64,000 bases of DNA from Amphiscolops sp. MND2022 (taxonomy: Eukaryota), in contig OZ076409.1 in assembly GCA_964187785.1 (NCBI GenBank), positions 71,054,001 through 71,118,000 of the forward strand, in the 5' to 3' direction. The position numbers and the translations under genes are program-made. The notes under the pieces were generated by a model that searched no databases, was not told the DNA's origin, and was given only the letters and a program-made list of their open reading frames with translations. Numbering within the stretch: the first letter of the stretch is position 1; each line of letters opens with the position of its first letter. Positions 19,585-52,300 of the stretch are shown piece by piece.

Positions 19585-22500
19585 GTGCCGGGATTTCTAT
19601 TCGATAAGGTATGTTGCGCGTGTGGGTAGGGTCCCTGGCGCGCTCTTGGGTATGGTGTTCACCAGCTAGGAAACAGGGGTCGATTTTTCGGGATCTCCTA
19701 AACTAGCCACACGATTTGGCTGAAATTTGGCACACGTACTCCCCTCGGCACGGTGAAGATGATTTCCTACTGACGTTTTTCCCGCAAAATTTTTTTTGTT
19801 GTCCAAAATAACGGTTTTTGGGGTAAAATTTTGAATTTTTTTTAAATTTTATCTTATATCTCGCCACGGGTTTACGCTAGCGCTTCAAAACCCTGCTAAA
19901 GAAAGCTTGCAAACTGTCTCAGGAATGCGGTGTGAAATTTTCAGCTCAATCGGACTCAAACTCAGGGAGATATAGCGTTTTTCCGGAGCGGGGGGGTTTC
20001 ATTTTTCTAACGGTCCAGCATATCTTTGCCATTTTTTCGAAAATGCACTCGCCTAAAGACCTCCCCTGGCCGGTTTTATTCCCAGCAAAACCATTTGGCC
20101 CTAAATACGGAGTTTCAGCGTTCCAGCATTCCCGGGCGAAAAGTTGTGGGACTTAGAAAATTTCAAAAATTTTCAAAATTTTTTTTTTCGGTTTTCCGCC
20201 CTCCCCCCCCGGGGGAAAAGACCCCCCAACCAGTAATTTGAGTGAATTCATGTGGAAAGGCCATGTTTAGAGGAGAAAAATCCCGTTTAAATCGTCTTTT
20301 TATCTTTATTCAACGTTGACTTATGACGTTTTGAAGGTGATGTTTGGAGGTGTGAAGCACGTGAAAAGTAAACGTTATGAGTATTTATCTGATCTGAAAG
20401 TCATTGAGATGCAACCTGTTTTGCTCAAAACGTAATTCATATCAATTTGGTAGTCAATAAACACCCTTTGTTGTCATTTGACATTTTTTTTTGTTGATAT
20501 AAGAAAAAATTTTGTGTATTTATTCATTTTTTTCTCATCAAATAACTTGAAACAGTTGAGTACATTCCATCCCCCCTTCACGGGGGAGATGAGAATGTAC
20601 TCGCAAAAAGCCCCAAACTACGGCCCTTACCTTCCTGAGCTACGCAGTATAAAGATTGCATATTGGTTCCGACATTTTGATAGAGTTATATCTTGGTAAT
20701 CTGTCTGGGTATGCAGAAAAACCAGCACGTGCTTTTTTATACCAAGTTGCTCACAACGACATTTATTTTATATCAACGCCCCCATATTTATCAACGCCCC
20801 CCGTCCGTGGGCATGCCGAGGCATGCCCTTCGACGACGTATACCAAGATATACTTCGAGCGCGTTAGCCTAGGTGCCGGTGTTTTTTTACACAAAGGGGG
20901 ATGTTGCGCGTGTGGGGAGGGTCCCTGACGCGCTCCCGGGATTTCGGATTTTTTAACCTTTACGTACCCATCAAAAATTTTGGGATCTCGAAAACTAGCC
21001 GTACGATTTGGCTGAAATTTGGCACACGTACCCCCCTCGGCACGGTGAAGATGATTCCCTACTGACGTTTTGCTCGCTAAACATTTTTTGTTGACCAAAA
21101 TAACGGTTTTTGGGGTAAAATTTTCAACTTTTTTTAAATTTCATCTTATATCTCGCCACGGGTACACGCTAGCGCTTCCAAACCTTGCTGACAAAAGTTT
21201 GCAAACTGTCTCAGGAATGCTGTGTGAAATTTTCAGCTCAATCGGACTCAAACTCGAGGAGATATAGCGTTTTTCCGGAGCGGGGGGGTTTCATTTTTCT
21301 AACGGTCCAGCTTATCTTTGCCATTTTTTCAAAAATGTACTCGTCTAAAGGCCTCCCCTGGCCGGTTTTATTCCCAGCAAAACCATTTGGCCCTAAATAC
21401 GGAGTTTCAGCGTTCCAGCATTTCTGGGCGAAAAGTTGTGGGACTTAGAAAATTTCAAAAATTTTCATAAAATTTTTTTTTCGTTATTTGGGCCCCCAAA
21501 GTGGGGGAAAAGACCCCCCAACCAGTAAAGCAAGTGAATGCATGTGCAAAGCCCTTGTTTGGACGAGAAAAATGCCGTTTAGAACGTCTTTTTATCTTGG
21601 CTCAACGTTGACTTATGACGTTTTGAAGGTGATGTTTGGAGGTGTAAAGCAAGTGAATAGTAAACGTTATGAGTATTTATCTGATCTGAAAGCCATTGAG
21701 ATGCAATATGGTTTGCTCAAAACGTAATTCATTGCAGTTTGGCAATCAATCAACACCCTTTGTTGTCGTTTGACATACTTTTTGGTTGTTATAATAAAAA
21801 ATTTTGTGTATTTATTCATTTTTTTCTCATCAAATAACTTGGAACAGTTGAGTACATTCCATCCCCCCCTTCCGGGGGAGATGAGAATGTACTCGCAAAA
21901 AGCACCGAACTACGGCCCTTACCTTCCCGAGCTACGCAGTATAAGGATTACATATTGGTTCCGACATTTTCATAGAGTTATATCTTGGTAATCTGTCTGG
22001 ATATGCCGAAAAATCAGCACGTGCCTTTTAATACCAAGTTGCTCACAACGACAATTATTTTATCTCAACGCCCCCATATTTATCAACGCCCCCCGTCCGT
22101 GGGCATGCCGAGGCATGCCCTTCGACGACCCGCACCAAAATATGCGTTAGCGCGTTAGCCTAGGTGCCGGGATTTTCTATTCGACAAGTTTGCGCGCCTT
22201 GGGGAGGGTCCCTTTGCGCGCTTTAAGATCCAGGTGTTTCCAACTCCTAAACGGGCATGTGATTTCGACGATCTCCTAAACTAGCCATACGATTTGGCTG
22301 AAATTTGGCACACGTACCCCCCTCGGCACGGTGAAGATGATTTCCTACTGACGTTTTTCCCGCTAAACATTTTTTGTTGACCAAAATAACGGTTTTTGGG
22401 GTAAAATTTTCAACTTTTTTTAAATTTCATCTTATATCTCGCCACGGGTACACGCTAGCGCTTCCAAACCTTGCTGACGAAAGTTTGCAAACTGTCTCAG

Positions 22501-23434: not shown

Positions 23435-25969
23435 GTGGCCGTGTCTTTTCGACGTGCTTTTGCATCGAGGAGTGGGTAGGGCCCCGCGACGACCTAGAAG
23501 AATTGGATGCTCACCGAAACGTGCAGAATTCTACGAGATCTCATAGTTTGAGCCATACGATTTTTCTGAAATTTGGCATGTGGCCTGGAATTGGTGAGTA
23601 GGTAAAACGTGTAGGAGGTGATTTTTCCCAAATTCCACTGTGAGACGAGATATGGGCAAATAACGGTCCCAAAAATGGCAAAAATGCACTTTTTTCAAGT
23701 TTGTCAGCCCATATCTCGTTCCCAGGTGCCCGGAGCGGGACGCGTTAAGCTGATTATAAACTCTAGGGTGTTGAGGCTGTACGGTGAACTTGGGCCCGTT
23801 CCGATCCGACTTGTAGTCTTGGAGAAATAACGGTATTTTTGGGGAACCTTTTCTAACGGTCCAGCTTATCTTTGCCATTTTTTCGAAAATGTACTCGCCT
23901 AAAGGCCTCCCCCTGGCCGAATTTACTCCCAGCAAAACCATTTGGCCCTAAATACGGAGTTTCAGCGTTCCAGCATTCCCGGGCGAAAAGTTGTGGGACT
24001 TGGAAAATTTTCAAAAATTTTCAAAAAATTTTTTTTTCGTTTTCCGGGCCCCCAATGAAGGGGAAACGACCCCCCAACCAGTATTTTGAGTGAATTCATG
24101 TGGAAAGCCCTTGTTTTGACGAGAAAAATACCGTTTAGAACATCTTTTTATCTTGACTCAACGTTGACTTATGACGTTTTGAATGTGATGTAAGGATGTA
24201 GGAGGCATGTGATAAGTTGATGTTTTGAGTCTTTATCTCATATGAAAGCGGTTGAGATGCAAGCTGTCCTGCTCAAAACGTCTTTCGTTGTAATTTTCCA
24301 GTGCACCAATACCCTTTGGTGTCATATAAACATACTTTTTGTCGATATATTAACAATTTTAATGTATTTATTCCAATTTTTATTATCTTATAACTCAAAA
24401 CAGTTGAGTACATTTCATCTCCCTTTCGGGGGAGATGAGAATGTACTCGCTAAAGACCTAGCGCCATGACCAAAAGTTTGAAACCCACGTTTTTTATCTT
24501 CTTACAGACTTGTTTTTGTATTTTTTCGGAATTTTTTAAAAATTAATATACTTGAAATACATTACTTGACTTTACTACTACAACCCACCTCCAACGACAA
24601 CGCCCCCCTGCTTGCATCAACGCCCACCGTCCGTGGGCATGCCGAGGCATGCCCTTCGACGACGTATGCCAAATGCCCAGTGCCACGCAGTCATTATCGC
24701 TAGGTGGCCGTGTCTTTTCGACGTGCTTTTGCATCGAGGAGTGGGTAGGGCCCCGCGACGACCTAGAAGAATTGGATGCTCACCGAAACGTGCAGAATTC
24801 TACGAGATCTCATAGTTTGAGCCATACGATTTTGCTGAAATTTGGCATGTGGCCTGGAATTGGTGAGTAGGTAAAACGTGTAGGAGGTGATTTTTCCCAA
24901 ATTCCACTGTGAGACGAGATATGGGCAAATAACGGTCCCAAAAATGGCAAAAATGCACTTTTTTCAACTTTGTCAGCCCATATCTCGTTCCCAGGTGCCC
25001 GGAGCGGGACGCGTTAAGCTGATTATAAACTCTAGGGTGTTGAGGCTGTACGGGGAAGTCAGGCCCGTTCCGATCGGACCTGTAGTCTTGGAGAAATAAC
25101 GGTATTTTTGGGGAACCTTTTCTAACGGTCCAGCTTATCTTTGCCATTTTTTCGAAAATGTACTCGCCTAAAGGCCTCCCCCTGGCCGAATTTACTCCCA
25201 GCAAAACCATTTGGCCCTAAATACGGAGTTTCAGCGTTCCAGCATTCCCGGGCGAAAAGTTGTGGGACTTGGAAAATTTTCAAAAATTTTCAAAAATTTT
25301 TTTTTTCGTTTTCCGGGCCCCCAATGAAGGGGAAACGACCCCCCAACCAGTATTTTGAGTGAATTCATGTGGAAAGCCCTTGTTTTGACGAGAAAAATAC
25401 CGTTTAGAACATCTTTTTATCTTGACTCAACGTTGACTTATGACGTTTTGAATGTGATGTAAGGATGTAGGAGGCATGTGATAAGTTGATGTTTTGAGCC
25501 TTATCTCATATGAAAGCGGTTGAGATGCAAGCTGTCCTGCTCAAAACGTCTTTCGTTGTAATTTTGCAGTGCAACAATACCCTTTGGTGTCATATAAACA
25601 TACTTTTTGTCGATATATTAACAATTTTAATGTATTTATTCCAATTTTTATTATCTTATAACTCAAAACAGTTGAGTACATTTCATCTCCCTTTCGGGGG
25701 AGATGAGAATGTACTCGCTAAAGACCTAGCGCCATGACCAAAAGTTTGAAACCCACGTTTTTTATCTTCTTACAGACTTGTTTTTGTATTTTTTCGGAAT
25801 TTTTTAAAAATTAATATACTTGAAATACATTACTTGACTTTACTACTACACCACCTCCAACGACAACGCCCCCCTGCTTGCATCAACGCCCACCGTCCGT
25901 GGGCATGCCGAGGCATGCCCTTCGACGACGTATGCCAAATGCCCAGTGCCACGCAGTCATTATCGCTAG
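23435..25969 (+). mobile_element. Two class A units (1269 and 1266 bp)
   Basis: Same pair of subtypes, in the same order, as 1360-3896. Confidence 0.6.
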
Positions 25970-34337: not shown

Positions 34338-37300
34338 GTGCCGGGATTTCCATTCGATAAGGAATTCTGCGCGTGTGGGTAGGGCCCCTGGCGCGCTCCT
34401 GTGTTTTCGGTTTTCCTACTCCAAATTCACACCCCAGTTATCTCCGATCTCGTAAACTATCCATACGATTTGGCTGAAATTTGGCACACGTACCCCCCTC
34501 GGCACGGTGAAGATGATTTCCTACTGACGTTTTTCCCGCTAAACATTTTTTGTTGACCAAAATAACGGTTTTTGGGGTAAAATTTTCAACTTTTTTTAAA
34601 TTTTATCTTATATCTCGCCACGGGTACACGCTAGCGCTTCCAAACCTTGCTGACGAAAGTTTGCAAACTGTCTCAGGAATGCTGTGTGAAATTTTCAGCT
34701 CAATCGGACTTAAACTCGAGGAGATATAGCGTTTTTCCGGAGCGGGGGGGTTTCATTTTTCTAACGGTCCAGCTTATCTTTGCCATTTTTTCGAAAATGC
34801 ACTCGCCTAAAGGCCTCCCCTGGCCGGTTTTATTCCCAGCAAAACCATTTGGCCCTAAATACGGAGTTTCAGCGTTCCAGCATTCCCGGGCGAAAAGTTG
34901 TGGGACTTAGAAAATTTCAAAAATTTTCAAAAATTTTTTTTCCGTTATTTGGGCCCCCAAAGTGGGGGAAAAGACCCCCCAACCAGTAAAGCAAGTGAAT
35001 GCATGTGCAAAGCCCTTGTTTAGAGGAGAAAAATGCCGTTTAGAACGTCTTTTTATCTTGGCTCAACGTTGACTTATGACGTTTTGAAGGTGATGTTTGG
35101 AGGTGTAAATCACGTGAATAGTAAACGTTATGAGTATTTATCTGATCTGAAAGCCATTGAGATGCAATATGGTTTGCTCAAAACGTAATTCATGGCAGTT
35201 TGGCAATCAATCAACACCCTTTGTTGTCGTTTGACATACTTTTTTGTTGTTATAATAAAAATTTTGTGTATTTGTTCATTTTTTTCTCATCAAATAACTT
35301 GAAACAGTTGAGTACATTCCATCCCCCCTTCCGGGGGAGATGAGAATGTACTCGCAAAAAGCAGCGAATTACGGCCCTTACCTTCCCGAGCTACGCAGTA
35401 TAAGGATTACATATTGGTTCCGACATTTTCATAGAGTTAAATCTTGGTAATCTGTCTGGATATGCAGAAAAATCAGCACGTGCCTTTTAATACCAAGTTG
35501 CTCACAACGACAATTATTTTATATCAACGCCCCCATATTTATCAACGCCCCCCGTCCGTGGGCATGCCGAGGCATGCCCTTCGACGACGTATACCAAGAT
35601 ATACATCGAGCGCGTTAGCCTAGGTGCCGGGATTTCTATTCGATAAAGTATGTGGCGCGCCTTGGGTAGGGTCCCTTGCGCGCTCTTGGGTTTGGTGTTC
35701 ACCAGCTAGGAAACAGGGGTCGATTTTTCGGGATCTCCTAAACTAGCCACACGATTTGGCTGAAATTTGGCACACGTACCCCCCTCGGCACGGTGAAGAT
35801 GATTTCCTACTGACGTTTTTCCCGCAAAATTTTTTTTGTTGTCCAAAATAACGGTTTTTGGGGGAAAATTTTGAACTTTTTTTAAATTTCATCTTATATC
35901 TCGCCACCGGTTTACGCTAGCGCTTCAAAACCCTGCTAAAGAAAGCTTGCAAACTGTCTCAGGAATGCGGTGTGAAATTTTCAGCTCAATCGGACTCAAA
36001 CTCAGGGAGATATAGCGTTTTTCCGGAGCGGGGGGGTTTCATTTTTCTAACGGTCCAGCTTATCTTAGCCATTTTTTCGAAAATGTACTCGCCTAAAGAC
36101 CTCCCCTGGCCGGTTTTATTCCCAGCAAAACCATTTGGCCCTAAATACGGAGTTTCAGCGTTCCAGCATTCCCGGGCGAAAAGTTGTGGGACTTAGAAAA
36201 TTTCAAAAATTTTCAAAAATTTTTTTTCCGTTTTCCGCCCTCCCCCCCTAGGGGAAAAGACCCCCCAACCAGTAATTTGAGTGAATTCATGTGGAAAGGC
36301 CATGTTTAGAGGAGAAAAATCCCGTTTAAATTGTCTTTTTATCTTTATTCAACGTTGACTTATGACGTTTTGAAGGTGATGTTTGGAGGTGTGAAGCACG
36401 TGAAAAGTAAACGTTATGAGTATTTATCTGATCTGAAAGCCATTGAGATGCAACCTGTTTTGCTCAAAACGTAATTCATATCAGTTTGGTAGTCAATCAA
36501 CACCCTTTGTTGTCATTTGACATCTTTTTTTGTTGATATAAGAAAAAATTTCGTGTATTTATTCATTTTTTTCTCATCAAATAACTTGAAACAGTTGAGT
36601 ACATTCCATCCCCCCTTCACGGGGGAGATGAGAATGTACTCGCAAAAAGCCCCAAACTACGGCCCTTACCTTCCTGAGCTACGCAGTATAAAGATTGCAT
36701 ATTGGTTCCGACATTTTGATAGAGTTATATCTTGGTAATCGGTCTGGGTATGCAGAAAAACCAGCACGTGCTTTTTTATACCAAGTTGCTCACAACGACA
36801 TTTATTTTATATCAACGCCCCCAAAATTATCAACGCCCCCCCGTCCGTGGGCATGCCGAGGCATGCCCTTCGACGACGTATACCAAAATATGTTCGAGCG
36901 CGTTAGCCTAGGTGCCGGGATTTCCATTCGATAAGGAATTCTGCGCGTGTGGGTAGGGCCCCTGGCGCGCTCCTGTGTTTTCGGTTTTCCTACTCCAAAT
37001 TCACACCCCAGTTATCTCCGATCTCGTAAACTATCCATACGATTTGGCTGAAATTTGGCACACGTACCCCCCTCGGCACGGTGAAGATGATTTCCTACTG
37101 ACGTTTTTCCCGCTAAACATTTTTTGTTGACCAAAATAACGGTTTTTGGGGTAAAATTTTCAACTTTTTTTAAATTTTATCTTATATCTCGCCACGGGTA
37201 CACGCTAGCGCTTCCAAACCTTGCTGACGAAAGTTTGCAAACTGTCTCAGGAATGCTGTGTGAAATTTTCAGCTCAATCGGACTTAAACTCGAGGAGATA

Positions 37301-40300
37301 TAGCGTTTTTCCGGAGCGGGGGGGTTTCATTTTTCTAACGGTCCAGCTTATCTTTGCCATTTTTTCGAAAATGCACTCGCCTAAAGGCCTCCCCTGGCCG
37401 GTTTTATTCCCAGCAAAACCATTTGGCCCTAAATACGGAGTTTCAGCGTTCCAGCATTCCCGGGCGAAAAGTTGTGGGACTTAGAAAATTTCAAAAATTT
37501 TCAAAAATTTTTTTTCCGTTATTTGGGCCCCCAAAGTGGGGGAAAAGACCCCCCAACCAGTAAAGCAAGTGAATGCATGTGCAAAGCCCTTGTTTAGAGG
37601 AGAAAAATGCCGTTTAGAACGTCTTTTTATCTTGGCTCAACGTTGACTTATGACGTTTTGAAGGTGATGTTTGGAGGTGTAAATCACGTGAATAGTAAAC
37701 GTTATGAGTATTTATCTGATCTGAAAGCCATTGAGATGCAATATGGTTTGCTCAAAACGTAATTCATGGCAGTTTGGCAATCAATCAACACCCTTTGTTG
37801 TCGTTTGACATACTTTTTTGTTGTTATAATAAAAATTTTGTGTATTTGTTCATTTTTTTCTCATCAAATAACTTGAAACAGTTGAGTACATTCCATCCCC
37901 CCTTCCGGGGGAGATGAGAATGTACTCGCAAAAAGCAGCGAATTACGGCCCTTACCTTCCCGAGCTACGCAGTATAAGGATTACATATTGGTTCCGACAT
38001 TTTCATAGAGTTAAATCTTGGTAATCTGTCTGGATATGCAGAAAAATCAGCACGTGCCTTTTAATACCAAGTTGCTCACAACGACAATTATTTTATATCA
38101 ACGCCCCCATATTTATCAACGCCCCCCGTCCGTGGGCATGCCGAGGCATGCCCTTCGACGACGTATACCAAGATATACATCGAGCGCGTTAGCCTAGGTG
38201 CCGGTGTCTTTTTACACAATGGGGGAAGTTGCGCGGTTGGGGAGGGTCCCTGACGCGCTTCCGTGAGATCAGGTTTTTCAACTAGTGAAATCGACAAAGA
38301 AAATTGAGATCTCGTAAACTAGCCATACGATTTGGCTGAAATTTGGCACACGTACCCCCCTCGGCACGGTGAAGATGATTTCCTACTGACGTTTTGCTCG
38401 CTAAACATTTTTTGTTGACCAAAATAACGGTTTTTGGGGTAAAATTTTCAACTTTTTTTAAATTTCATCTTATATCTCGCCACAGCTTTACGCTAGCGCT
38501 TCCAAACCTTGCTGACGAAAGTTTGCAAACTGTCTCATGAATGCTGTGTGAAATTTTCAGCTCAATCGGACTTAAACTCGAGGAGATATAGCGTTTTTCC
38601 GGAGCGGGGGGGTTTCATTTTTCTAACGGTCCAGCTTATCTTTGCCATTTTTTCGAAAATGCACTCGCCTAAAGGCCTCCCCTGGCCGGTTTTATTCCCA
38701 ACAAAACCATTTGGCCCTAAATACGGAGTTTCAGCGTTCTAGCATTCCCGGGCGAAAAGTTGTGGGACTTAGAAAATTTCAAAAATTTTCAAAAAAATTT
38801 TTTCCGTTATTTGTGCCCCCAAAGTGGGGGAAAGCACCCTCCAACCAGTAATTTGAGTGAATTCATGTAGAAAGGCCATGTTTAGAGGAGAAAAATCCCG
38901 TTTAAATCGTCTTTTTATCTTTATTCAACGTTGACTTATGACGTTTTGAAGGTGATGTTTGGAGGTGTAAAGCACGTGAATAGTAAACGTTATGAGTTTT
39001 TATCTGATCTGAAAGCCATTGAGATGCAATATGGTTTGCTCAAAACGTAATTCATGGCAGTTTGGCAATCAATCAACACCCTTTGTTGTCGTTTGACATA
39101 CTTTTTTGTTGTTATAATAAAAAATTTTGTGTATTTATTCATTTTTTTCTCATCAAATAACTTGAAACAGTTGAGTACATTCCATCGCCCCCTTCCGGGG
39201 GAGATGAGAATGTACTCGCAAAAAGCACCGAACTACGGCCATTACCTTCCCGAGCTACGCAGTATAAGGATTACATATTGGTTCCGACATTTTCATAGAG
39301 TTAAATCTTGGTAATCTGTCTGGATATGCAGAAAAACCAGCACGTGCTTTTTTATACCAAGTTGCTTACAACGACAATTATTTTATATCAACGCCCCCAT
39401 ATTTATCAACGCCCCCCGTCCGTGGGCATGCCGAGGCATGCCCTTCGACGACGTATACCAAGATATGTTCGAGCGCGTTAGCCTAGGTGCCGGTGTTTTT
39501 TTACACAATGGGGGAAGTTGCGCGGTTGGGGAGGGTCCCTGACGCGCTCCCGGGATTTCGGATTTTTTAACCTTTACGTACCCATCAAAAATTTTGGGAT
39601 CTCGAAAACTAGCCGTACGATTTGGCTGAAATTTGGCACACGTACCCCCCTCGGCACGGTGAAGATGATTCCCTACTGACGTTTTTCTCGCTAAACATTT
39701 TTTGTTGACCAAAATAACGGTTTTTGGGGTAAAATTTTCAACTTTTTTTAAATTTCATCTTATATCTCGCCACGGGTACACGCTAGCGCTTCCAAACCTT
39801 GCTGACGAAAGTTTGCAAACTGTCTCAGGAATGCTGTGTGAAATTTTCAGCTCAATCGAACTTGAACTCGAGGAGATTTAGCGTTTTTCCGGAGCGGGGG
39901 GGTTTCATTTTTCTAACGGTCCAGCTTATCTTTGCCATTTTTTCGAAAATGCACTCGCCTAAAGGCCTCCCCTGGCCGGTTTTATTCCCAGCAAAACCAT
40001 TTGGCCCTAAATACGGAGTTTCAGCGTTCCAGCATTCCCGGGCGAAAAGTTGTGGGACTTAGAAAAGTTCAAAAATTTTCAAAAAAATTTTTTTCCGTTA
40101 TTTGGGCCCCCAAAGTGGGGAAAAGACCCCCCAACCAGTAAAGCAAGTGAATGCATGTGCAAAGCCCTTGTTTGGACGAGAAAAATGCCGTTTAGAACGT
40201 CTTTTTATCTTGGCTCAACGTTGACTTATGACGTTTTGAAGGTGATGTTTGGAGGTGTAAAGCAAGTGAATAGTAAACGTTATGAGTATTTATCTGATCT

Positions 40301-40777
40301 GAAAGCCATTGAGATGCAATATTGTTTGCTCAAAACGTAATTCATTGCAGTTTGGCAATCAATCAACACCCTTTGTTGTCGTTTGACATACTTTTTTGTT
40401 GTTATAACAAAAAATTTTGTGTATTTATTCATTTTTTTCTCATCAAATAACTTGGAACAGTTGAGTACATTCCATCCCCCCTTCCGGGGGAGATGAGAAT
40501 GTACTCGCAAAAAGCACCGAACTACGGCCCTTACCTTCCCGAGCTACGCAGTATAAGGATTACATATTGGTTCCGACATTTTCATAGAGTTATATCTTGG
40601 TAATCTGTCTGGATATGCCGAAAAATCAGCACGTGCCTTTTAATACCAAGTTGCTCACAACGACAATTATTTTATATCAACGCCCCCATATTTATCAACG
40701 CCCCCCGTCCGTGGGCATGCCGAGGCATGCCCTTCGACGACTCGCACCAAAATATGCGTTAGCGCGGTAGCTGCTAG
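34338..40777 (+). mobile_element. Five class D units (1286-1291 bp)
   Basis: Joints at 35623, 36911, 38197 and 39486; units 34338-35623 and 36912-38197 look nearly identical. Confidence 0.6.
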
Positions 40778-43307
40778 GTGCCGGGATTTCTATTCGATAA
40801 AGTATTTTGCGCGGTTGGGTAGGGCCCCGTGAGCGCGCCAGGGGATTGTGTTAGAACAACCGGAAATTCGGCATACGATTTTGGCGATTTTCTAAACTAT
40901 CCATACGATTTGGCTCAAATTTGGCATACGGGTTCCTGAGACAGATATAAGAACTAATTCCTACTGGCGTTTTGCCCGGAAAATTTTTTTTGTTGCCCAA
41001 AATTGAAATTTTCGGCAAAAAAATGCGATTTTTTTTGAAAAATTTTTTTTGAGAGGCCATATCTTTTTTCAGGGTGCCCGGAGCGGGACGCGTTAAACTG
41101 ATTATAAACTCTACGGTTCATGGGCTTTACGGAGAACCTAGGCTCGTTCCAATCGGACTTGTAGTCTTGGAGATATAACGGCATTTTTTGGGAATTTTTT
41201 GGAAATTTTTCTAACGGTCCAGCTTATCTTTGCCATTTTTTCGAAAATGTACTCGCCTAAAGGCCTCCCCTGGCCGGTTTTATTCCCAGCAAAACCATTT
41301 GGCCCTAAATACGGAGTTTCAGCGTTCCAGCATTCCCGGGCGAAAAGTTGTGGGACTTAGAAAATTTTTTTGGAAACGCAAAATGTGTAAAGTCAACTTC
41401 TGGCCTCCCAAAGTCAAGGAACTTCCACACAACTAGTATTGCAAGTGAATGCATGTGGAGAGTACTCGAATAGACGAGGAAAATGAGCTATAGAACGTCT
41501 CTGTAGCTTAACTTGACGTTGACTTATGACCTTTTGAGTGTGAGCTTGCTATGCGAGAAAAAATGCAAAACATGAAAATGGAAGCAAAGTATCGTCGAAA
41601 ACCCATCATAAGATGTTCAACTCATCCTAGAGCGGTTTATTAACAGTTGTTTAGTAGAGCAACACCATTCATGATCATGTGACCCATTTTTATGGGTTAT
41701 GAGATTGTCTTATTCATCCGATAGCCCAAAGCAGTTGAGTACATTCCATCTCACATCCGTGTGAGATGAGAATGTACTCGCTAAAGTCCAGGTACTACAG
41801 GCCATTTTGGTTTTATGCGACGCTCTGTATGCAAATGAGCTTACTTGAAATTTTTTTAGCTGATATTTTTTTAAACTGCACTTTGACTCTGACCTGACAT
41901 ACTGAATATTTAGTCCTTATAACATACACATAATTGACGTCAACGCCCCATCCTTGCATCAACGCCCACCGTCCGTGGGCATGCCGAGGCATGCCCTTCG
42001 ACGACGCGCACCAAAATATTCCCCGAGCGCGTTAGCCTAGGTGCCGGTGTTTTTCACGACAGAGAAAGTTGCGCGCTTTGGGTAGGGTCCCGGCGCGCTT
42101 CAGGGGCTCATTTTTACAACCTGATAGGACACATGCTGAAATGACCGATCTCCTAAACTACCCGTCAGATTTTGCTGAAATTTGGCACGAAGCTTCCTTG
42201 GAACATTCTAAGAACAAATCCCTACTGGCGTTTTGCTGGGAAAAATCGAAAAGTTGGTCAAAAATGCGATTTTCCGACAAAATTTTGGGGTAAAATTTTT
42301 TTGAAACGGTATATCTCGCCACAGGGTCACGCTAGCGCCTCGCAACCTATGATCGTGTTTTGTTGGGCGTTGTCTGTAGAACACGTATGCCAAATTTGGT
42401 GGCGATCGGACTTAAACTCAGGGAGATATAGCGATTTTTTAGGTGCATTTTTTGACATTTTTTGCATTTGCCGATTTATCTCTGCCGTTTTTGCCCAAAT
42501 TTTTTTTGAGACACTCTCCTAAAGACCTCCCCTGGCCGGTTTACCTCCCAGAAAAACCATTTGGCCCTAAATACGAAGTTTCAGCGTTCTAGCATTCCCG
42601 GGCAAAAAGTTGTGGGACTTAGAATAGTTTTTATGGTAACGCAAAATGTGTAAAGTCAACTTCAGGCCTCCCAAAGTCAAAGAACTTCCACACAACTAGG
42701 ATTGCAAGTGGGTGCATGTGGAAAGTACTCGGATAGACGAGAAAAATGAGCTATAGAACGACTCTGTAGCTTAACCTGACGTTGACTTATGACAATTTTA
42801 GTGTGAGCTTGCTATTTGGTGTAAAAATTCAAATGATGAAAATCGAAGCTAAGTCTCATCCAAAACTCATCGGAATACGTTCAATGCACCCCAAAGCGGA
42901 TTAATTCGAGATGTTTAGTGCAGCAACACCATTCAAGACCATTTGACCCATTTTTATAAGTTTTGACAACGTATTATTCATACGAGAGCACGAAACAGTT
43001 GAGTACATTCCATCTCCCTTTCGGGGGAGATGAGAATGTACTCGCTAAAGTCCAGGTACTACAGCCCATATTTGCTTTTATGCGACGCTCTTATGCTAGT
43101 GCGCATACTTTTTAATCGTTTAACTGAATTTTCTTCTGTCTGCACTTTGACTTTGACTTGACATATAGTGAACGTTTTGTCTTACAACTTACAAATGAGT
43201 AACGTCAACGCCCCATCCTTGCATCAACGCCCACCGTCCGTGGGCATGCCGAGGCATGCCCTTCGACGACGTATGCCAAGATATATCCCAAGCGCGGTAG
43301 CCGCTAG
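40778..43307 (+). mobile_element. Two F-like or mosaic units (1263 and 1267 bp)
   Basis: 3' halves resemble class F (GGCCTCCCAAAGTCA..CCACACAACTAG); 5' halves differ; joint at 42040. Confidence 0.6.
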
Positions 43308-46300
43308 GTGCGGGGGGGAAACCCCAACAAAATTTTTGGAGGATTCGGGTAGGGTCCTGAATCCGAGTTCAGTGCTGCCAGCTTTCGTTAAGAAAATTTG
43401 GATAGGATTCGGGATCTCGTGATCTAACCATAGGATTTTAAAGTTGGAGCGGCCCCCACCAGATTTTCCGAAAATTAGCGCCCCCCACCGGGTTCCATAC
43501 CCCGGAAAATTTTTTTCTGGCCACACGGGCGACCGTTAGGGGGTCATTTTAGGGGTAAAATTCATATTGGGCCACATAACTTTTTTTCTGTTGATTTAAA
43601 ACTTTGGGACCCTGCTAAAAGTTTCTTGACCGTGTTGCAGGGGCCCCGGAGGTCCAAACCAAATTTTTCTATCTTGAAGCTATCTCCAAGTACCCCCCCG
43701 CCCAAAACGTTATTTTTCCGGAAACGCAGGTTTTTGACCCGGAAGGAGTCGTCGGAGCGCGGGGTCGTTAGGTGATGTATTGGGGACGGCCTTGAGACGA
43801 AGTGGGGGACATGCAGTTTGCCAACCCCAGTTTACCCCCCGGACCGGAAATGACCGTTATTTGAGCGGGAAAAATGCCCCCCTCCACGTTTTACCGCTAT
43901 TTCCGGTGTGAAGGAGTGGGAGTAGCGCGTCGGGTGCCATATATCAAAAGTAGGTTTAGACAAGGATCTATCGGAAACATGTGGTTTGGGACCCCCTGGA
44001 CCAACCCGTTAGCAGGAAATGGGGCTTCCGGCCCGTTTTTTTACGGTTAAAAACGGAAAATGGGCATTGAGGGGTAAATATCTCGTGAACGCGTGGAGCT
44101 ACGGTGTCCTTCACTCCTACAAGGTTTCATACCCATGATATGGTGCCTTCAGAGGGGCAAACAGATTTCCGCTATCTATCACCGTTACGGACTTGGCCCC
44201 CCAGCCTAACCGTTAAGTGACCGGAAATGTCATATTTTGAGCCCAAAGGGTCGGTCCCAGCCAGGGAACGTTAGGTAACTTATTGTAGTACTCATTGAGA
44301 CGAGTTGGGGGACATAGTTTCAGTCACCCCCCGTTACCCCTTGGGACCGGAAATGACCGTTATGTGAGTAAATTTGCCATTTTTGTCCTATTTGAAGGGC
44401 ATTTAGATGCGGAAGGAGTGGTAATAGGGGCTTGGACACTATATGAGGTAAGGGAGGACGTGAGGCGAGCATTCGGACATAACCGTTATGTTGACCCTAA
44501 AGTCCCCCTGGTACCGTAAACAACCGGAAATGGTCAAATTTTGTGTCTATTGGGTACAAATGTTTGGTATTTTGTAAATAAAAGTATCTATTAGGTGTTT
44601 CGACGGTTTGCAGTAGTGAACATAGTCATGAAACCTTGTGGGGGGTAACGGTATATAGCACCGGAAATCCAAACCGTTGGAGACAGGATAGGTTTTTTGA
44701 TTTTAAAATGTCTTTCGACGTACTTTTGTTGACTATTAAGGACTATTTTTAAAAATTAAAGTTTTTCCATATAGTTTCAGAGACTCCGAAACCTCAACCA
44801 ACATAACCGTTACCTCATGATAGCCTTTCAAGTTGGCCTGGTGTCAACTTGGAAGGGCTATCCTTCAAAAATCGTCAATCAGGTGTGTTTTTGGGTATGT
44901 TTGTATCACTTTAGAATCAATTAGAGCTTCAAGAAAAGTTTGCCAACGACAAAAACTATGTCGTGATGATTCCGTTATTAGAATAATAGTTAGCAAATTG
45001 TTGAGAAAATTGATTTTTTCCATATAAAATGTGTCCTAAATGCCAGGAAACCTATTTAACTAACAAATGGTATTGATTGGAATGTATGTAACAGATTTAT
45101 AAAATTTCAAATTAATTATTACGATTCAAAATGGAAGCTGAAACGTAATATTTTAGTTTAATTAACGTCAACGCCACACACTTTACATCAACGCCCACCG
45201 TCTGTGGGCATGCCGAGGCATGCCCTTCGACGACGTATACCAAATACATACCCAAACGACGCCCGTACATCCCGGGCTAGGTGCGGGGGGGTAACCCCAA
45301 CAAAAATTTTGGAGGATTCGGGTAGGGTCCTGAATCCGATTTTAACTCTAATAGCTATCGATAGGAAATCTTGGTGCGGGGGGGTAACCCCAACAAAAAT
45401 TTTGGAGGATTCGGGTAGGGTCCTGAATCCGATTTTAACTCTAATAGCTATCGATAGGAAATCTTGCAAAAATTTCGGGATCTCGTGATCTAACCATAGG
45501 ATTTTAAAGTTGGAGCGGCCCCCACCAGATTTTCCAAAGTTATTCGCCCCCCACCGGGTTCCAGCGTGATTGAAATATTCTGACGGGGTACACGGGCGAC
45601 CGTTAGGGGTCATTTTAGGGGTAAATTTTATATAATGTCGCATAACTTTTTTCCTGTTGGATTAAAACTTTGGGACCCTGCTAAAAGTTTCTTGACCGTG
45701 TTGCGGGGGCTCCGGAGGTCCAAACCAAATTTTTCTATCTTGAAGCTATCTCCAAGTACCCCCCTGCCCAAACCGTTATTTTTCCGGAAACGCAGGTTTT
45801 TGACCCGGAAGGAGTCGTCTGAGCGCGGGGTCGTTAGGTGATGTATTGGGGACGGCCTTGAGACGAAGCGGGGGACATGTAGTTTGCCGACCCCTGTTTA
45901 CCCCCCGGACGGGAAATGACTGTTATTTGAGCGGGATAAATGCCCCCCTCCACGTTTTACCGCTATTTCCGGTGTGAAGGAGTGGGAGTAGCGCGTCGGG
46001 TGTTACATAACAAAAGTAGGTTTAGACAAGGACCTATCGGAAACATGTAGTTTGGGACCCCCTGGACCAACCCGTTAGCAGGAAATGGGGCTTCCGGCCC
46101 GTTTTTTTACGGTTAAAAACGGAAAATGGGCATTGAGGGGTAAATATCTCGTGAACGCGTGGAGCAATCGTGTCCTTCACTACTACAAGGTTTCATACCC
46201 ATGATATGGTGCCTTCAGGGGGGCAAACAGATTTCCGCTATCTATCACCGTTACGGACTTGGCCCCCCAGCCTAACCGCTAAGTGACCGGAAATGTCACT

Positions 46301-49300
46301 TTTTGAGCCCAAAGGGTCGGTCCCAGCCAGGGAACGTTAGGTAACTTATTGTAGTACTCATTGAGATGAGTTGGGGGACATAGTTTCAGTCACCCCCCGT
46401 TACCCCTTAAGACCGGAAATGACCGTTATGTGAGTAAATTTGCCGTTTTTGTCCTATTTGAAGGGCATTTAGATGCGGAAGGAGTGGTAATAGGTGCTTG
46501 GACACTATATGAGGTAAGGGAGGATATGAGGCGAGCATTCGGAAATAACCGTTATGTTGACCCCAAAGTCCCCCTGGTACCGTAAACGACCGGAAATGGT
46601 CAAATTTTCTGTTTATAGGGTACAAATGTTTGGTATTTTGTAGATAAAAGTATCTATTAGGTGTTTCGACGGTCTGCAGTAGTGAACATAGTCATGAAAC
46701 CTTGTGGGGGGTAACGGTATATAGCACCGGAAGTCCAAACCGTTGGAGACAGGATAGGTTTTTTGGTTTTAAAATGTCTGTCGGCGTACTTTTGTCGACT
46801 ATTAAGGACTACTTTTAAAAATTAAAGTTTTTCCATATAGTTTTAGAGACTCCGAAACCTCAACCAACATAACCGTTACCTCATGATAGCCTTTCAAGTT
46901 GGCCTGGTGTCAACTTGGAAGGGCTATCCTTCAAAAATCGTCAATCAAGTGTGTTTTTGGGTATGTTTGTATCATTTTAGAATCAAATAGAGCTTCAAGA
47001 AAAGTTTGCCAACGACAAAAACTATTTCGTGATGATTCCGTTATTAGAATAATAGTTAGCAAATTGTTGAGAAAATTGATTTTTTCCATATAAAAAGTGT
47101 CCTAATTGCCAGTAAACCTATTTAACTAACAAATGGTATTGATTGGAATGTATGTAACAGAGTTATAAAAGTTCAAATTGATTATTACGTTTCATTATGG
47201 AAGCTGAAACGTCATATTTTAGTTTAATTAACGTCAACGCCACACACTTTACATCAACGCACACCGTCTGTGGGCATGCCGAGGCATGCCCTTCGACGAC
47301 GTATGACAAATCCATATCAAACGACGCCCGTACATCCCGGGCTAGGTGCGGGGGGGAAACCCCAACAAAATTTTTGGAGGATTCGGGTAGGGTCCTGAAT
47401 CCGAGTTCAGTGCTGCCAGCTTTCGTTAAGAAAATTTGGATAGGATTCGGGATCTCGTGATCTAACCATAGGATTTTAAAGTTGGAGCGGCCCCCACCAG
47501 ATTTTCCGAAAATTAGCGCCCCCCACCGGGTTCCATACCCCGGAAAATTTTTTTCTGGCCACACGGGCGACCGTTAGGGGGTCATTTTAGGGGTAAAATT
47601 CATATTGGGCCACATAACTTTTTTTCTGTTGATTTAAAACTTTGGGACCCTGCTAAAAGTTTCTTGACCGTGTTGCAAGGGCTCCGGAGGTCCAAACCAA
47701 ATTTTTCTATCTTGAAGCTATCTCCAAGTACCCCCCCGCCCAAAACGTTATTTTTCCGGAAACGCAGGTTTTTGACCCGGAAGGAGTCGTCGGAGCGCGG
47801 GGTCGTTAGGTGGTGTATTGGGGACGGCCTTGAGACGAAGTGGGGGACATGCAGTTTGCCAACCCCAGTTTACCCCCCGGACGGGAAATGACCGTTATAT
47901 GAGCGGCAAAAATGTCCCCCTCCACGTTTTACCGCTATTTCCGGTGTGAAGGAATGGGAGTAGCGCGTCGGGTGCCATATATCAAAAGTAGGTTTAGACA
48001 AGGATCTATCGGAAACATGTGGTTTGGGACCCCCTAGACCAACCCGTTAGCAGGAAATGGGGCTTCCGGCCCGTTTTTTTACGGTTAAAAACGGAAAATG
48101 GGCATTGAGGGGTAAATATCTCGTGAACGCGTGGAGCTACGGTGTCCTTCACTACTTCAAGGTTTCATACCCATGATATGGTGCCTTCAGGGGGGCAAAC
48201 AGATTTCCGCTATCTATCACCGTTACGGACTTGGCCCCCCAGCCTAACCGTTAAGTGACCGGAAATGTCATATTTTGAGCCCAAAGGGTCGGTCCCAGCC
48301 AGGGAACGTTAGGTAACTTATTGTAGTACTCATTGAGACGAGTTGGGGGACATAGTTTCAGTCACCCCCCGTTACCCCTTGGGACCGGAAATGACCGTTA
48401 TGTGAGTAAATTTGCCATTTTTGTCCTATTTGAAGGGCATTTAGACGCGGAAGGAGTGGTAACAGGTGCTTGGACACTATATGAGGTAAGGGAGGACGTG
48501 AGGCGAGCATTCGGACATAACCGTTATGTTGACCCTAAAGTCCCCCTGGTACCGTAAACGACCGGAAATGGTCAAATTTTGTATTTTTAGGGTACAAATG
48601 TTTGGTATTTTATGGAATAAAGTACATGGAAGGTGTTTCAAAGGCATCCAGAAATGAACATAGTCATGAAACCTTGAGGGGGGTAACGGTATATAACACC
48701 GGAAGTCCAAGCCGTTGGACACAGTATAGGTTTTTGGGTTTTAAAATGCTTATGAACGTACATTTGTGGGTTGAATTGTTCTAATATTGACTATTTTCGA
48801 TATTTTTTGACATTAAAGGTTTTTCCAATAGTTTCAGGGCCCTCCAAAGCTTCAATCAACATAACCTTTACATTATGATAGCCTTTCAAGTTGGCCTGGT
48901 GTCAACTTGGAAGGGCTATCCTTCACAAATCGTATATCAAGTGTGTTTTTGAGTAGGTTTTTATCACTTTAGTATCAATTAGAGCTTAATCATTAGTTTG
49001 CCAACGACAAAAACCATGTCGTGATGATTCCGTTAGTAGAAGAATAGTTAACATCTTGTTGACAAAGTTGATTTTTTGCATTTAAAATGTTTCCTAAATG
49101 CCAGGAAAACGATTTACGTTATAAATGGTACTGATTGACCCAAAGAACAGTTAAAAAAAGTTAAACATTATTTTTTCGTTTCATTATAGAAGCTGAAACC
49201 TCACGTTTTAACTTAATTAACGTCAACGCCACATACTTTACATCAACGCCCACCGTCTGTGGGCATGCCGAGGCATGCCCTTCGACGACGTATACCAAAC

Positions 49301-52300
49301 ACCAATATATCTACACCCAATTGCGGTAGCGGCTAGGTGCGGGGGGGTAACCCCAACAAATATATTGGAGGATTCGGGTAGGGTCCTGAATCCGATTTTA
49401 ACTCTAATAGCTATCGATAGGAAATCTTGCAAAAATTTCGGGATCTCGTGATCTAACCATAGGATTTTAAAGTTGGAGCGGCCCCCACCAGATTTTCCAA
49501 AATTATTCGCCCCCCACCGGGTTCCAGCGTGATTGAAATATTTTGTCGGGGTACACGGGCGACCGTTAGGGGTCATTTTGGGGGTAAAATTTATATAATG
49601 TCGCATAACTTTTTTCCTGTTGGATTAAAACTTTGGGACCCTGCTAAAAGTTTCTTGACCGTGTTGCGGGGGCTCCGGAGGTCCAAACCAAATTTTTCTA
49701 TCTTGAAGCTATCTCCAAGTACCCCCCCGCCCAAACCGTTATTTTTCCGGAAACGCAGGTTTTTGACCCGGAAGGAGTCGTCTGAGCGCGGGGTCGTTAG
49801 GTGATGTATTGGGGACGGCCTTGAGACGAAGCGGGGGACATGTAGTTTGCCGACCCCAGTTTACCCCCCGGACGGGAAATGACCGTTAGTTGAGCGGGAA
49901 AAATGCCCCCCTCCACGTTTTACCGCTATTTCCGGTGTGAAGGAGTGGGAGTAGCGCGTCGGGTGTTTTATATCAAAAGTAGGTTTAGACAAGGATCTAT
50001 CGGAAACATGTAGTTTGGGACCCTCTGGACCAACCCGTTAGCGGGAAATGGCGCTTCCGCTTCCTTTTTTTACTGCTAAAACCGTAAAATGGGCATTGAG
50101 GGGTAAATATCTTTTGAACGCGTGGAGCAATCGTGTCCATCACTACTACAAGGTTTCATACCCATGATATGGTGCCTTCAGGGGGGCAAACAGATTTCCG
50201 CTATCTATCACCGTTACCGACTTGGCCCCCCAGCCTAACCGCTATGTGACCGGAAATGTCACTTTTTGAGCCCAAAGGGTCGGTCCCAGCCGGGGAACGT
50301 TAGGTAACTTATTGTAGTACTCAAGGAGACGAGTTGGGGGATATAGTTTCAGTCAACCCCCGTTACCCCTTGGGACCGGAAATGACCGTTATGTGGGTAA
50401 ATTTGCATTTTTAATACTTTTTCAAGTGCATTTATGTGCGGAAGGAGTGGTAATAGGTGCTTGGACACTATATGATGTAATGGAGGTCGTGAGGAGAGCA
50501 TTCGGAAATAACCGTTATGTTGACCCTAAAGTCCCCCTGGTACCGTTAACGACCGGAAATGGTCAAATTTTGTGTCTATTGGGTACAAATGTTTGGTATT
50601 TTATGGATAAAAGTACCTGGAAGGTGTTTTAAAGGCCTCCAGAAGTGAACATAGTCATGAAACCTTGTGGGGGGTAACGGTATATAGCACCGGAAGTCCA
50701 AACCGTTGGTCACAGAATAGGTTTTTTTGTTTCAAAATGTCTTTAGGCATAGTTTTGTGGGTTGAATCGTCATAATATCAACTAATACGGACTTTTTTTC
50801 GGAAATAAAATTTTTTCACATTAGTTTCAGGGACCTCCAATGCTTCAGTCAACATAACCGTTACATTTTGATAGCCTTTCAAGTTGACCTGGTGTCAACT
50901 TGGAAGGGCTATCCTTCTAAAATCGTTAATCAAGAGTGTTTTTGGGTAGGTATATGTTGCATTAGTACCAATTAGAGCTTCATCAACAGTTTGCCAACGG
51001 CAAAAACGATGTCGTGATAATTCCGTTATAAAAATATTAGTTAACAAATTGTTTTCAAAGTTGATTTTTTCCATTAAAAATGTGTCCTAATGCCACCAAA
51101 TTGAATAAAATGGTATTGACTAAAACTAAATAACAATGAAAAAGAAGATCAACATTTTTATTAGGTCTCATTATGGAAGCTGAAACCTCACGTTTTAGTT
51201 TAATTAACGTCAACGCCACATACTTTACATCAACGCCCACCGTCTGTGGGCATGCCGAGGCATGCCCTTCGACGACGTATACCAAACAACCTCCATATCT
51301 ACACCCACCCGCGGTAGCAGCTAGGTGCGGGGGGGAAACCCCATCCTTTATCTTGGAGGATTCGGGTAGGGTCCTGAATCCGAGTTCAGTGCCGCCAGCT
51401 CTCAGTAGAAATCTGGGAAATTTTTTGCGATCTCGTGATCTAACCATAGGATTTTAAAGTTGGAGCGGCCCCCACCAGATTTTCCAAAGTTATTCGCCCC
51501 CCACCGGGTTCCAGCGTGATTGAAATATTCTGACGGGGTACACGGACGACCGTTAGGGGTCATTTTAGGGGTAAAATTTATATAATGTCGCATAACTTTT
51601 TTCCTGTTGGATTAAAACTTTGGGACCCTGCTAAAAGTTTCTTGACCGTGTTGCGGGGGCTCCGGAGGTCCAAACCAAATTTTTCTATCTTGAAGCTATC
51701 TCCAAGTACCCCCCCGCCCAAACCGTTATTTTTCCGGAAACGCAGGTTTTTGACCCGGAAGGAGTCGTCTGAGCGCGGGGTCGTTAGGTGATGTATTGGG
51801 GACGGCCTTGAGACGAAGCGGGGGACATGTAATTTGCCGACCCCAGTTTACCCCCCGGGCGGGAAATGACCGTTATATGAGCGGGAAAAATGCCCCCCTC
51901 CACGTTTTACCGCTATTTCCGGTGTGAAGGAGTGGGAGTAGCGCGTCGGGTGTTATATAACAAAAGTAGGTTTAGACAAGGACCTATCGGAAACATGTAG
52001 TTTGGGACCCCCTGGTCCAACCCGTTAGCGAGAAATGGGGCTTCCGCCTCCTTTTTTTACTGCTAAAACCGTAAAATGGGCGTTGAGGGGTAAATATCTC
52101 GTGAACGCGTGGAACAATCGTGTCCATCACTACTACAAGGTTTCATACCCATGATATGGTGCCTTCAGGGGGGCAAACAGATTTCCGCTATCTATCACCG
52201 TTACCGACTTGGCCCCCCAGCCTAACCGCTATGTGACCGGAAATGTCACTTTTTGAGCCCAAAGGGTCGGTCCCAGCCGGGGAACGTTAGGTAACTTATT

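Follow-up and report, generated by a model that had tools for sequence, protein, structure and literature searches.

A doubled 93-bp head in an array of non-coding units, possibly the trace of an aborted rolling-circle event

At one position of a long head-to-tail array, the first 93 bp of a non-coding unit were found twice in a row. The array occupies the entire window, i.e., the whole stretch of 64,000 nucleotides that was analysed. The doubled head is real in the assembly, and its best explanation is an aborted rolling-circle event in cis, to which we give about an even chance of being correct. The features of the region are the following.

1-64000, + strand: head-to-tail array of 41 complete non-coding units and two cut ones, in one orientation and uninterrupted
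43308-45280, + strand: neighbouring unit on the upstream side, also of the ~2-kb family, whose head differs at 15 of 93 nt
45206-45225, + strand: hairpin in the tail of this neighbouring unit, 55 nt upstream of its CTAG end
45277-45283, + strand: normal junction core CTAG/GTG, invariant at 42 of 42 junctions, the junctions being defined by the same motif
45281-45373, + strand: extra copy of the unit head, GTG...CTTG, 93 bp (alternative placement one base to the left)
45314-45337, + strand: head hairpin in the extra copy, 9-bp stem with one G-T pair (twin at 45407-45430)
45370-45376, + strand: aberrant joint CTTG/GTG, whose CTTG is the first CTWG to follow the unit start
45374-47345, + strand: complete non-coding unit (1,972 bp, ~2-kb family), whose first 93 bp (45374-45466) equal the extra copy
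45463-45466, + strand: CTTG of the complete unit, which continues into CAAAA and has an exact homology of 1 nt to the junction

Self-comparison of the sequence showed that 45281-45373 and 45374-45466 are two identical 93-bp copies, and Tandem Repeats Finder reported 2.0 copies with 100% matches and 0 indels. The extra copy was preceded by ...GGGCTAG and terminated with ...AAATCTTG, the restart reading CTTG/GTGCG. The second copy continued CTTG/CAAAA into the normal 1,972-bp unit. One G is common to both ends, which leaves two registers for the duplication, with a start at 45281 or 45280. The period-93 run of 94 exact matches (45280-45373 = 45373-45466) agrees on this point with an earlier sequence-only reading, which had described the same restart and placed the start at GTG or at the preceding G. 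This reading had also proposed that the duplication begins at a unit start, as was indeed found, the start being located within the independently mapped 7-nt core CTAGGTG, and that the event is a single one. Sixteen exact tandem duplications with a period of 8-699 were present in the 64-kb window. Fifteen of them had a period of 8-11, and the 93-bp duplication alone was longer, making it the sole one with a period of at least 12. By chance, one or other of its ends would coincide with one of the 42 junctions with a probability of 0.0026, before allowing for the choice by eye. The number of observations is one (n = 1), with one doubled head in the window. The 93-mer showed 0 differences from its twin, then 2, 2, 2, and 3 differences from the nearest other heads, and at least 15 beyond these. 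The head variant of the doubled unit was absent from all the other 41 heads in the window. Identical heads do recur, as one head, identical over 93 nt, was common to three other units.

The motif CTAGGTG occurred 42 times on the + strand of the window and 0 times on the − strand. The array was composed of two related groups of 1.26-1.29 kb (11 and 17 units), 10 units of ~2 kb, and three remaining complete units of 1.28, 1.39, and 2.8 kb, with no host flanking DNA within the 64-kb window. Its layout suggests that the array is eukaryotic. No unit was interrupted by another: 42 tail hairpins were counted, and the sole head motif located off a junction was that of the 93-bp duplicate. Neighbours belonged to the same group in 26 of 40 cases versus 11.7 in shuffles, and none of 20,000 shuffles reached 26. 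The similarity of adjacent versus non-adjacent units was 0.92 versus 0.91, 0.85 versus 0.84, and 0.90 versus 0.91. The units are thus mosaics of shared blocks, in which groups cluster though neighbours are no more similar than distant members. A concatemer copied from a single template was rejected as the origin of the array because neighbours are no more alike than non-neighbours. Together with the presence of identical units one unit apart, this speaks against a single rolling-circle run on a single template, and argues for an array built by repeated arrival at junctions or by later shuffling.

Several details of the units were observed in addition. Two 1,286-bp units (34338-35623 and 36912-38197) were 100% identical, with one different unit between them, and the units at 1360-2628 and 23435-24703, 22 kb apart, were 99.9% identical. 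Judged from their sequence, such near-identical separated units point to a probable recent movement or conversion of single units. Within the 2.8-kb unit (3897-6695), a segment of ~503 bp occurred in approximately three copies (75-87% alike), and within the 2-kb family in two (~70% alike). An 8-bp tandem duplication (22144-22159) was present in one tail, a mosaic of two tail types, and ended 4 nt before the junction. A second motif block, at about +105 to +140 of each head, was conserved across all groups and in L001, a relative described below. This block comes after the head hairpin and is not part of the 93-bp copy, and it may resemble the internal motifs of non-autonomous Helentron-type repeats.

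A pure head-to-tail array hides the true ends of its units because every junction has the same core. Ten tails were seen at more than one junction, nine of which then had more than one kind of head. Four shared tails preceded different +4 bases, and five of the seven shared heads followed different −5 bases. This reassortment of heads and tails places the unit boundary inside CTAGGTG, at one of eight possible positions. The duplication narrows the boundary to CTA/GGTG or CTAG/GTG if a true end was used, which is a reasonable proviso given that this is the only duplication of period above 11 and given the low chance of a coincidence with a junction. A start at TG (CTAGG/TG) was rejected, as it would require an extra G at the joint. 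Very probably, the start of the 93-bp duplication corresponds to an end defined by an enzyme. The doubled head cuts the eight boundary positions to two and supplies a polarity, with a fixed GTG end and a loose CTAG end, which matches that of rolling-circle elements. The narrowed boundary provides exact substrates for nicking assays and terminal probes for an autonomous partner.

Hairpins were located near both ends of the units. The tail hairpin was present once per unit (42 of 42 copies), with its foot 40-58 nt before CTAG, and its stem was kept through a G-C/A-T swap. In some tails, a small hairpin of variable sequence can also form closer to the end than the conserved one. The palindrome of the tail (45206-45225, and likewise in all tails) may also be read as two adjacent decamers near the p53-family binding consensus. 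The head hairpin, approximately 33-58 nt after GTG, associates a constant purine-rich loop with differing stems, and reached z ≤ −2 in 13 of 19 distinct segments. It was weak in the 11-unit family (z +1.0), and the last unit was devoid of the loop motif. The + strand of the head hairpin folded better in 17 of the 19 segments, with 19 G-T pairs on the + strand versus 2 on the − strand. This strand bias largely amounts to one shared G-T pair, and G-U pairing fits RNA equally. In the unit at 1360-2628 and in 10 similar units, the poorly paired head hairpin was immediately followed by a perfect CTAG at +60-63. This group is abundant, yet it showed no truncation at its +60-63 CTAG.

In the extra copy, the foot of the head hairpin (45314-45337) was 36 nt before the CTTG end, a spacing near that of the true ends. 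The sequence-only reading considered the joint as enzymatically recognised, a claim that is weakened here, and it seems to us equally probable that the CTTG was or was not read as an end by an enzyme. In favour of such a reading, CTTG is the first CTWG of the unit, and CTWG ends 379 of the 63,953 window positions (0.6%) and 7 of 1,810 (0.4%) in the first 200 nt of the ~2-kb family. The exact microhomology at the joint is 1 nt, whereas at least 2 nt were available at 318 of 1,922 positions, and 3-4 nt at six sites that precede +93 and were left unused. On the other side, a single tetramer is involved, whose occurrence by chance ranges from 0.4% to 6% according to a motif definition chosen post hoc. 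With one mismatch to CTAG allowed, the share rises to 3.8% over the window and to 6.0% over positions 20-200 of the ~2-kb family. Five one-mismatch tetramer sites lie before +93 and were passed over. In addition, no truncation or nested insertion was observed at any of the 85 internal perfect CTAG and 294 internal CTTG, and no abortive unit was seen in the 11 units where a perfect CTAG is directly behind the head hairpin. The two precedents put forward for the joint were borne out. Passages of PMC13181058 give CTTG and GTTC as targets of IS91, and for the use of cryptic tetramers by rolling-circle transposons, passages of PMC4778049 provide a closer, eukaryotic case with Helraiser truncated at CTTG-3'.

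We propose the following course for the aborted event in cis. An HUH-type enzyme acting in trans would nick the + strand at CTAG^GTG and remain attached to the GTG 5' end. The free 3' end at CTAG would then prime a new copy of the head, with displacement of the old strand. After 93 nt, at the first CTWG, the enzyme would join the ...CTTG end to the GTG end that it holds, the CTTG located 36 nt behind the hairpin acting as a rough mimic of the true end made of hairpin, spacer, and CTAG. Replication would then fix the loop and produce the order CTAG/head/CTTG/GTG-full unit. The product would be identical if the donor were the same unit on the sister chromatid. A private head variant common to both copies favours copying in cis over independent arrival. 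For the same reason, an early stop followed by a restart fits better than the other route offered by the sequence-only reading, the insertion of a full unit at a near-cognate tetramer. A nick on the − strand would double the tail and not the head, so that the model implies the polarity of a fixed GTG end and a loose CTAG end. From the copy, its start at the boundary, the private variant, and the hairpins, all directly observed, we infer the enzyme class, the nicked strand, the chemistry, and the role of CTTG as an end. Against the model, the event is single, and a transposase and an autonomous partner were not found in the searches made. Moreover, the CTTG truncations of Helraiser came, in the passages cited, from hairpin- or end-deleted donors and not from intact ones.

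A different origin, which we regard as unlikely, would involve two molecules: a truncated element from elsewhere that entered the junction, or a full copy that landed behind the near-cognate CTTG of a resident unit, the resulting chimera (outer head to first tail) having then moved into the array as a single piece. Such a chimera corresponds to the self-insertion model of FoHeli, published for doubled 5' ends of less than 200 bp (passages of PMC5148889), and the insertion of IS91 beside a tetramer resembling its own terminal cleavage site fits this route (passages of PMC13181058), as does the recurrence of one head over 93 nt in three other units. The head variant concerned is however found in none of the other 41 heads, and two independent draws would rarely match; furthermore, the window shows no unit that is broken up by a second one. 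The product of two molecules would still be made by an enzyme, and it maps the identical 5' end. Host repair or replication slippage, which we consider distinctly improbable, would start from a nick or a stall at or near the junction and, by flap ligation or template switching, yield a tandem duplication with nearly blunt joining. The CTTG would then not be read by an enzyme and would reflect a coincidence, or a 3-of-4 imperfect homology to CTAG. The frequency of one-mismatch tetramers (3.8-6.0% of positions), the match in register of the C, T, and G of CTTG with CTAG, and the unused perfect internal CTAGs agree with such an origin, from which identical copies are expected. They have to be weighed against the exact microhomology of 1 nt, with better nearby sites unused, and against the chance of 0.0026 attached to the start position if no junction-specific nick is made. 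Plain slippage on exact microhomology is not favoured, with 1 nt at the joint. An artefact of assembly or polishing, i.e., an untrimmed overlap or a consensus error where many repeat paths meet, would account for the 100% identity of the copies and for a left end at the natural branch point of the array. We give it a low probability, as the right end, at +93, does not lie at a branch point (the alignment of the unit with four further CTTG-type heads continues well beyond +130) and elsewhere the similar units of the array are resolved and have regular lengths.

A site-specific recombinase, Crypton- or integron-like, could act on the CTAGGTG core by unequal exchange between the junction and a pseudo-site, CTTGCAA. 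According to passages of PMC3212892, Cryptons have 4-6 bp direct repeats at their ends, and inverted arms of 11-13 bp surround a spacer of 6-8 bp. The elements have no inverted repeats, and a circular form has been proposed for their movement. The invariant 7-bp core of the array is within the size of the 6-8 bp spacer of tyrosine recombinase sites, but the 11-13 bp inverted arms are absent around the core in the sequence logo, and the product switches mid-core, with CTT from the pseudo-site and GTG from the junction. From the chemistry of recombinases, cuts at the spacer edges should carry the whole spacer. We see very little chance for this mechanism, of which a single-strand, integron-like exchange is a possible form. 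The smallest chance of all is given to template jumping of a reverse transcriptase from one transcript to another, by which a 5' fragment of 93 nt would have been trapped between two full units. The G-T(U) pairs do favour the + strand, as RNA would, and template jumps produce mixed head-to-tail chains. However, the window holds no 5'-truncated unit and no unit with a poly(A) tail, no Rfam family reached the threshold in 40,000-50,000, and there is no tRNA in the window.

Genes, partners, and relatives were searched for with several tools. Pfam matched 0 of 14 ORFs, chosen from 28 ORFs of at least 100 aa and 21 stop-to-stop frames of 40778-47345, and no transposase or coding unit was found in the window. 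Rfam yielded three weak matches on 40,000-50,000, all below the gathering score, and ARAGORN 0 tRNA genes on the window. The scan of viral contigs gave 0 loci with the tail-hairpin motif and three loci with the junction-plus-hairpin pattern, which were rejected, 0 of 3 showing BLAST similarity to the units. Among metagenome contigs, the tail-hairpin motif scan identified one locus, L001, which is a genuine relative, 1,172 bp long, and contains no partner gene. Positions 790-1030 of L001 contain a related tail-head junction with both hairpins and the core CGAG/GTG. The family thus reaches beyond the array, and the T at position 2 of the tetramer is not universal. A locus detected by the same scan in bacterial genome contigs (L002) was discarded as a chance isolated 24-nt palindrome between ABC-transporter-like ORFs. 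Motif scans of viral, metagenome, and genome contigs revealed no autonomous partner (RepHel with the same ends). As to terminal inverted repeats, the longest perfect head/tail match was 8 nt, with a mean of 6.2 versus 6.6 in controls (41 units), and the inverted local alignment of head and tail scored 8.07 versus 8.15 when shuffled. For direct repeats, the longest head/tail match was 8 nt and not terminal, with a mean of 6.4 versus 7.0 in controls; in an array without solo copies, a core shared by neighbours is indistinguishable from a direct repeat. The literature search retrieved no description of these ends or of the hairpin, most subscription papers and Repbase/Dfam being outside its scope, so that the absence of such a description is not established.

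It is possible, although we hold it as tentative and rather doubtful, that the array represents an unclassified rolling-circle family whose GTG/CTAG ends each come with a hairpin and lack terminal repeats, in which the junction serves the enzyme as both origin and target and the 93-bp unit is a trapped intermediate. This hypothesis implies that targeting of its own junction chains several non-autonomous families into mixed arrays. The 93-bp unit would then fix the nick at CTAG^GTG on the + strand, and the stop signal would consist of a hairpin, about 35-50 nt, and CTWG.

The units were compared with the defining features of HLE1 and HLE2, as given in passages of PMC11417382 and PMC13085455. 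The CTRR 3' end of HLE1 was found, as CTAG, at 42 of 42 junctions on the + strand. Its TC 5' end was not, since the core CTAGGTG contains no TC in any register on the + strand. HLE1 inserts between a host A and T; the flanks present in the window are those between units, G and G. Of the features of HLE2 (Helitron2/Helentron), a hairpin at each end was observed, in 42 of 42 tails and with z ≤ −2 in 13 of 19 heads, weak in one family. Terminal inverted repeats of 11-18 nt were absent, the matches being at the level of controls, and the TT insertion and T-rich ends were replaced by CTAG/GTG junctions with G+C-rich flanks, as judged from inter-unit flanks only. The short direct terminal repeats of Replitrons (passages of PMC10288648) were not detected above the control level. 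The units work in the manner of Helitrons in that one end, CTAG, is preceded by a hairpin and the opposite end is fixed, but by their termini they do not qualify as HLE1, HLE2, or Replitrons and are unclassified.

Helraiser and HLE1 share with the units the CTAG 3' end behind a hairpin and the combination of a fixed 5' end with a loose 3' end. For Helraiser, passages of PMC4778049 describe experimental insertions from hairpin- or end-deleted donors that ended at an internal CTTG, others ending at CTAC or AATG. Its transposase cleaves the plus strand only, exactly at the end-to-end junction (passages of PMC5876387), and these precise junctions recall those of the array. Unlike Helraiser and HLE1, the units have a 5' end in GTG or GGTG and not TC, a hairpin located 40-58 nt from the end and not 11, no RepHel gene found, and no A/T host target visible in the window. 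The CTTG target of IS91 is also reminiscent of the joint, and the resemblance between its target tetramer and its terminal cleavage tetramer follows a logic that could build head-to-tail chains. IS91 is however bacterial and transposase-encoding, with an HUH Y2 transposase between oriIS and terIS, whereas no transposase ORF was found in the window and the tetramer alone is no target here, 379 internal CTWG being unused.

Tandem arrays of truncated Helitrons were described in plants by Xiong et al. 2016, with many 5' ends for one 3' end (as summarised in passages of PMC12628747 and PMC5148889). The over-copying of 5' ends relative to 3' ends is common to both situations. Those arrays are truncated runs from a single template, in contrast to the 41 complete units of mixed families present here. 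A close likeness is with FoHeli1/2 of Fusarium oxysporum. In passages of PMC5148889, FoHelis repeat their first 31, 65, 73, or 85 nt, which is explained by self-insertion, a subsequent transposition losing the remainder in one step. The sequence-only reading had overlooked this precedent. As in these elements, the 93-bp copy is a short repeat (<200 bp) of the first bases directly ahead of a full element, and hairpins exist at both ends, the 3' hairpin of FoHeli being 38-51 bp from the end versus 40-58 nt here. FoHelis differ by their 12-16 bp asymmetric inverted repeats, their TCAG or TGCCT starts, and their dispersed locations, with doubled heads at many loci; here, one doubled copy is found in a tandem array with GTG/CTAG ends and no inverted repeats. 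As an event, the 93-bp duplication is thus of a kind already on record, since rolling-circle elements with doubled 5' ends are known among Fusarium Helitrons (31-85 nt), and its interest lies in the unclassified, self-chaining element family that surrounds it.
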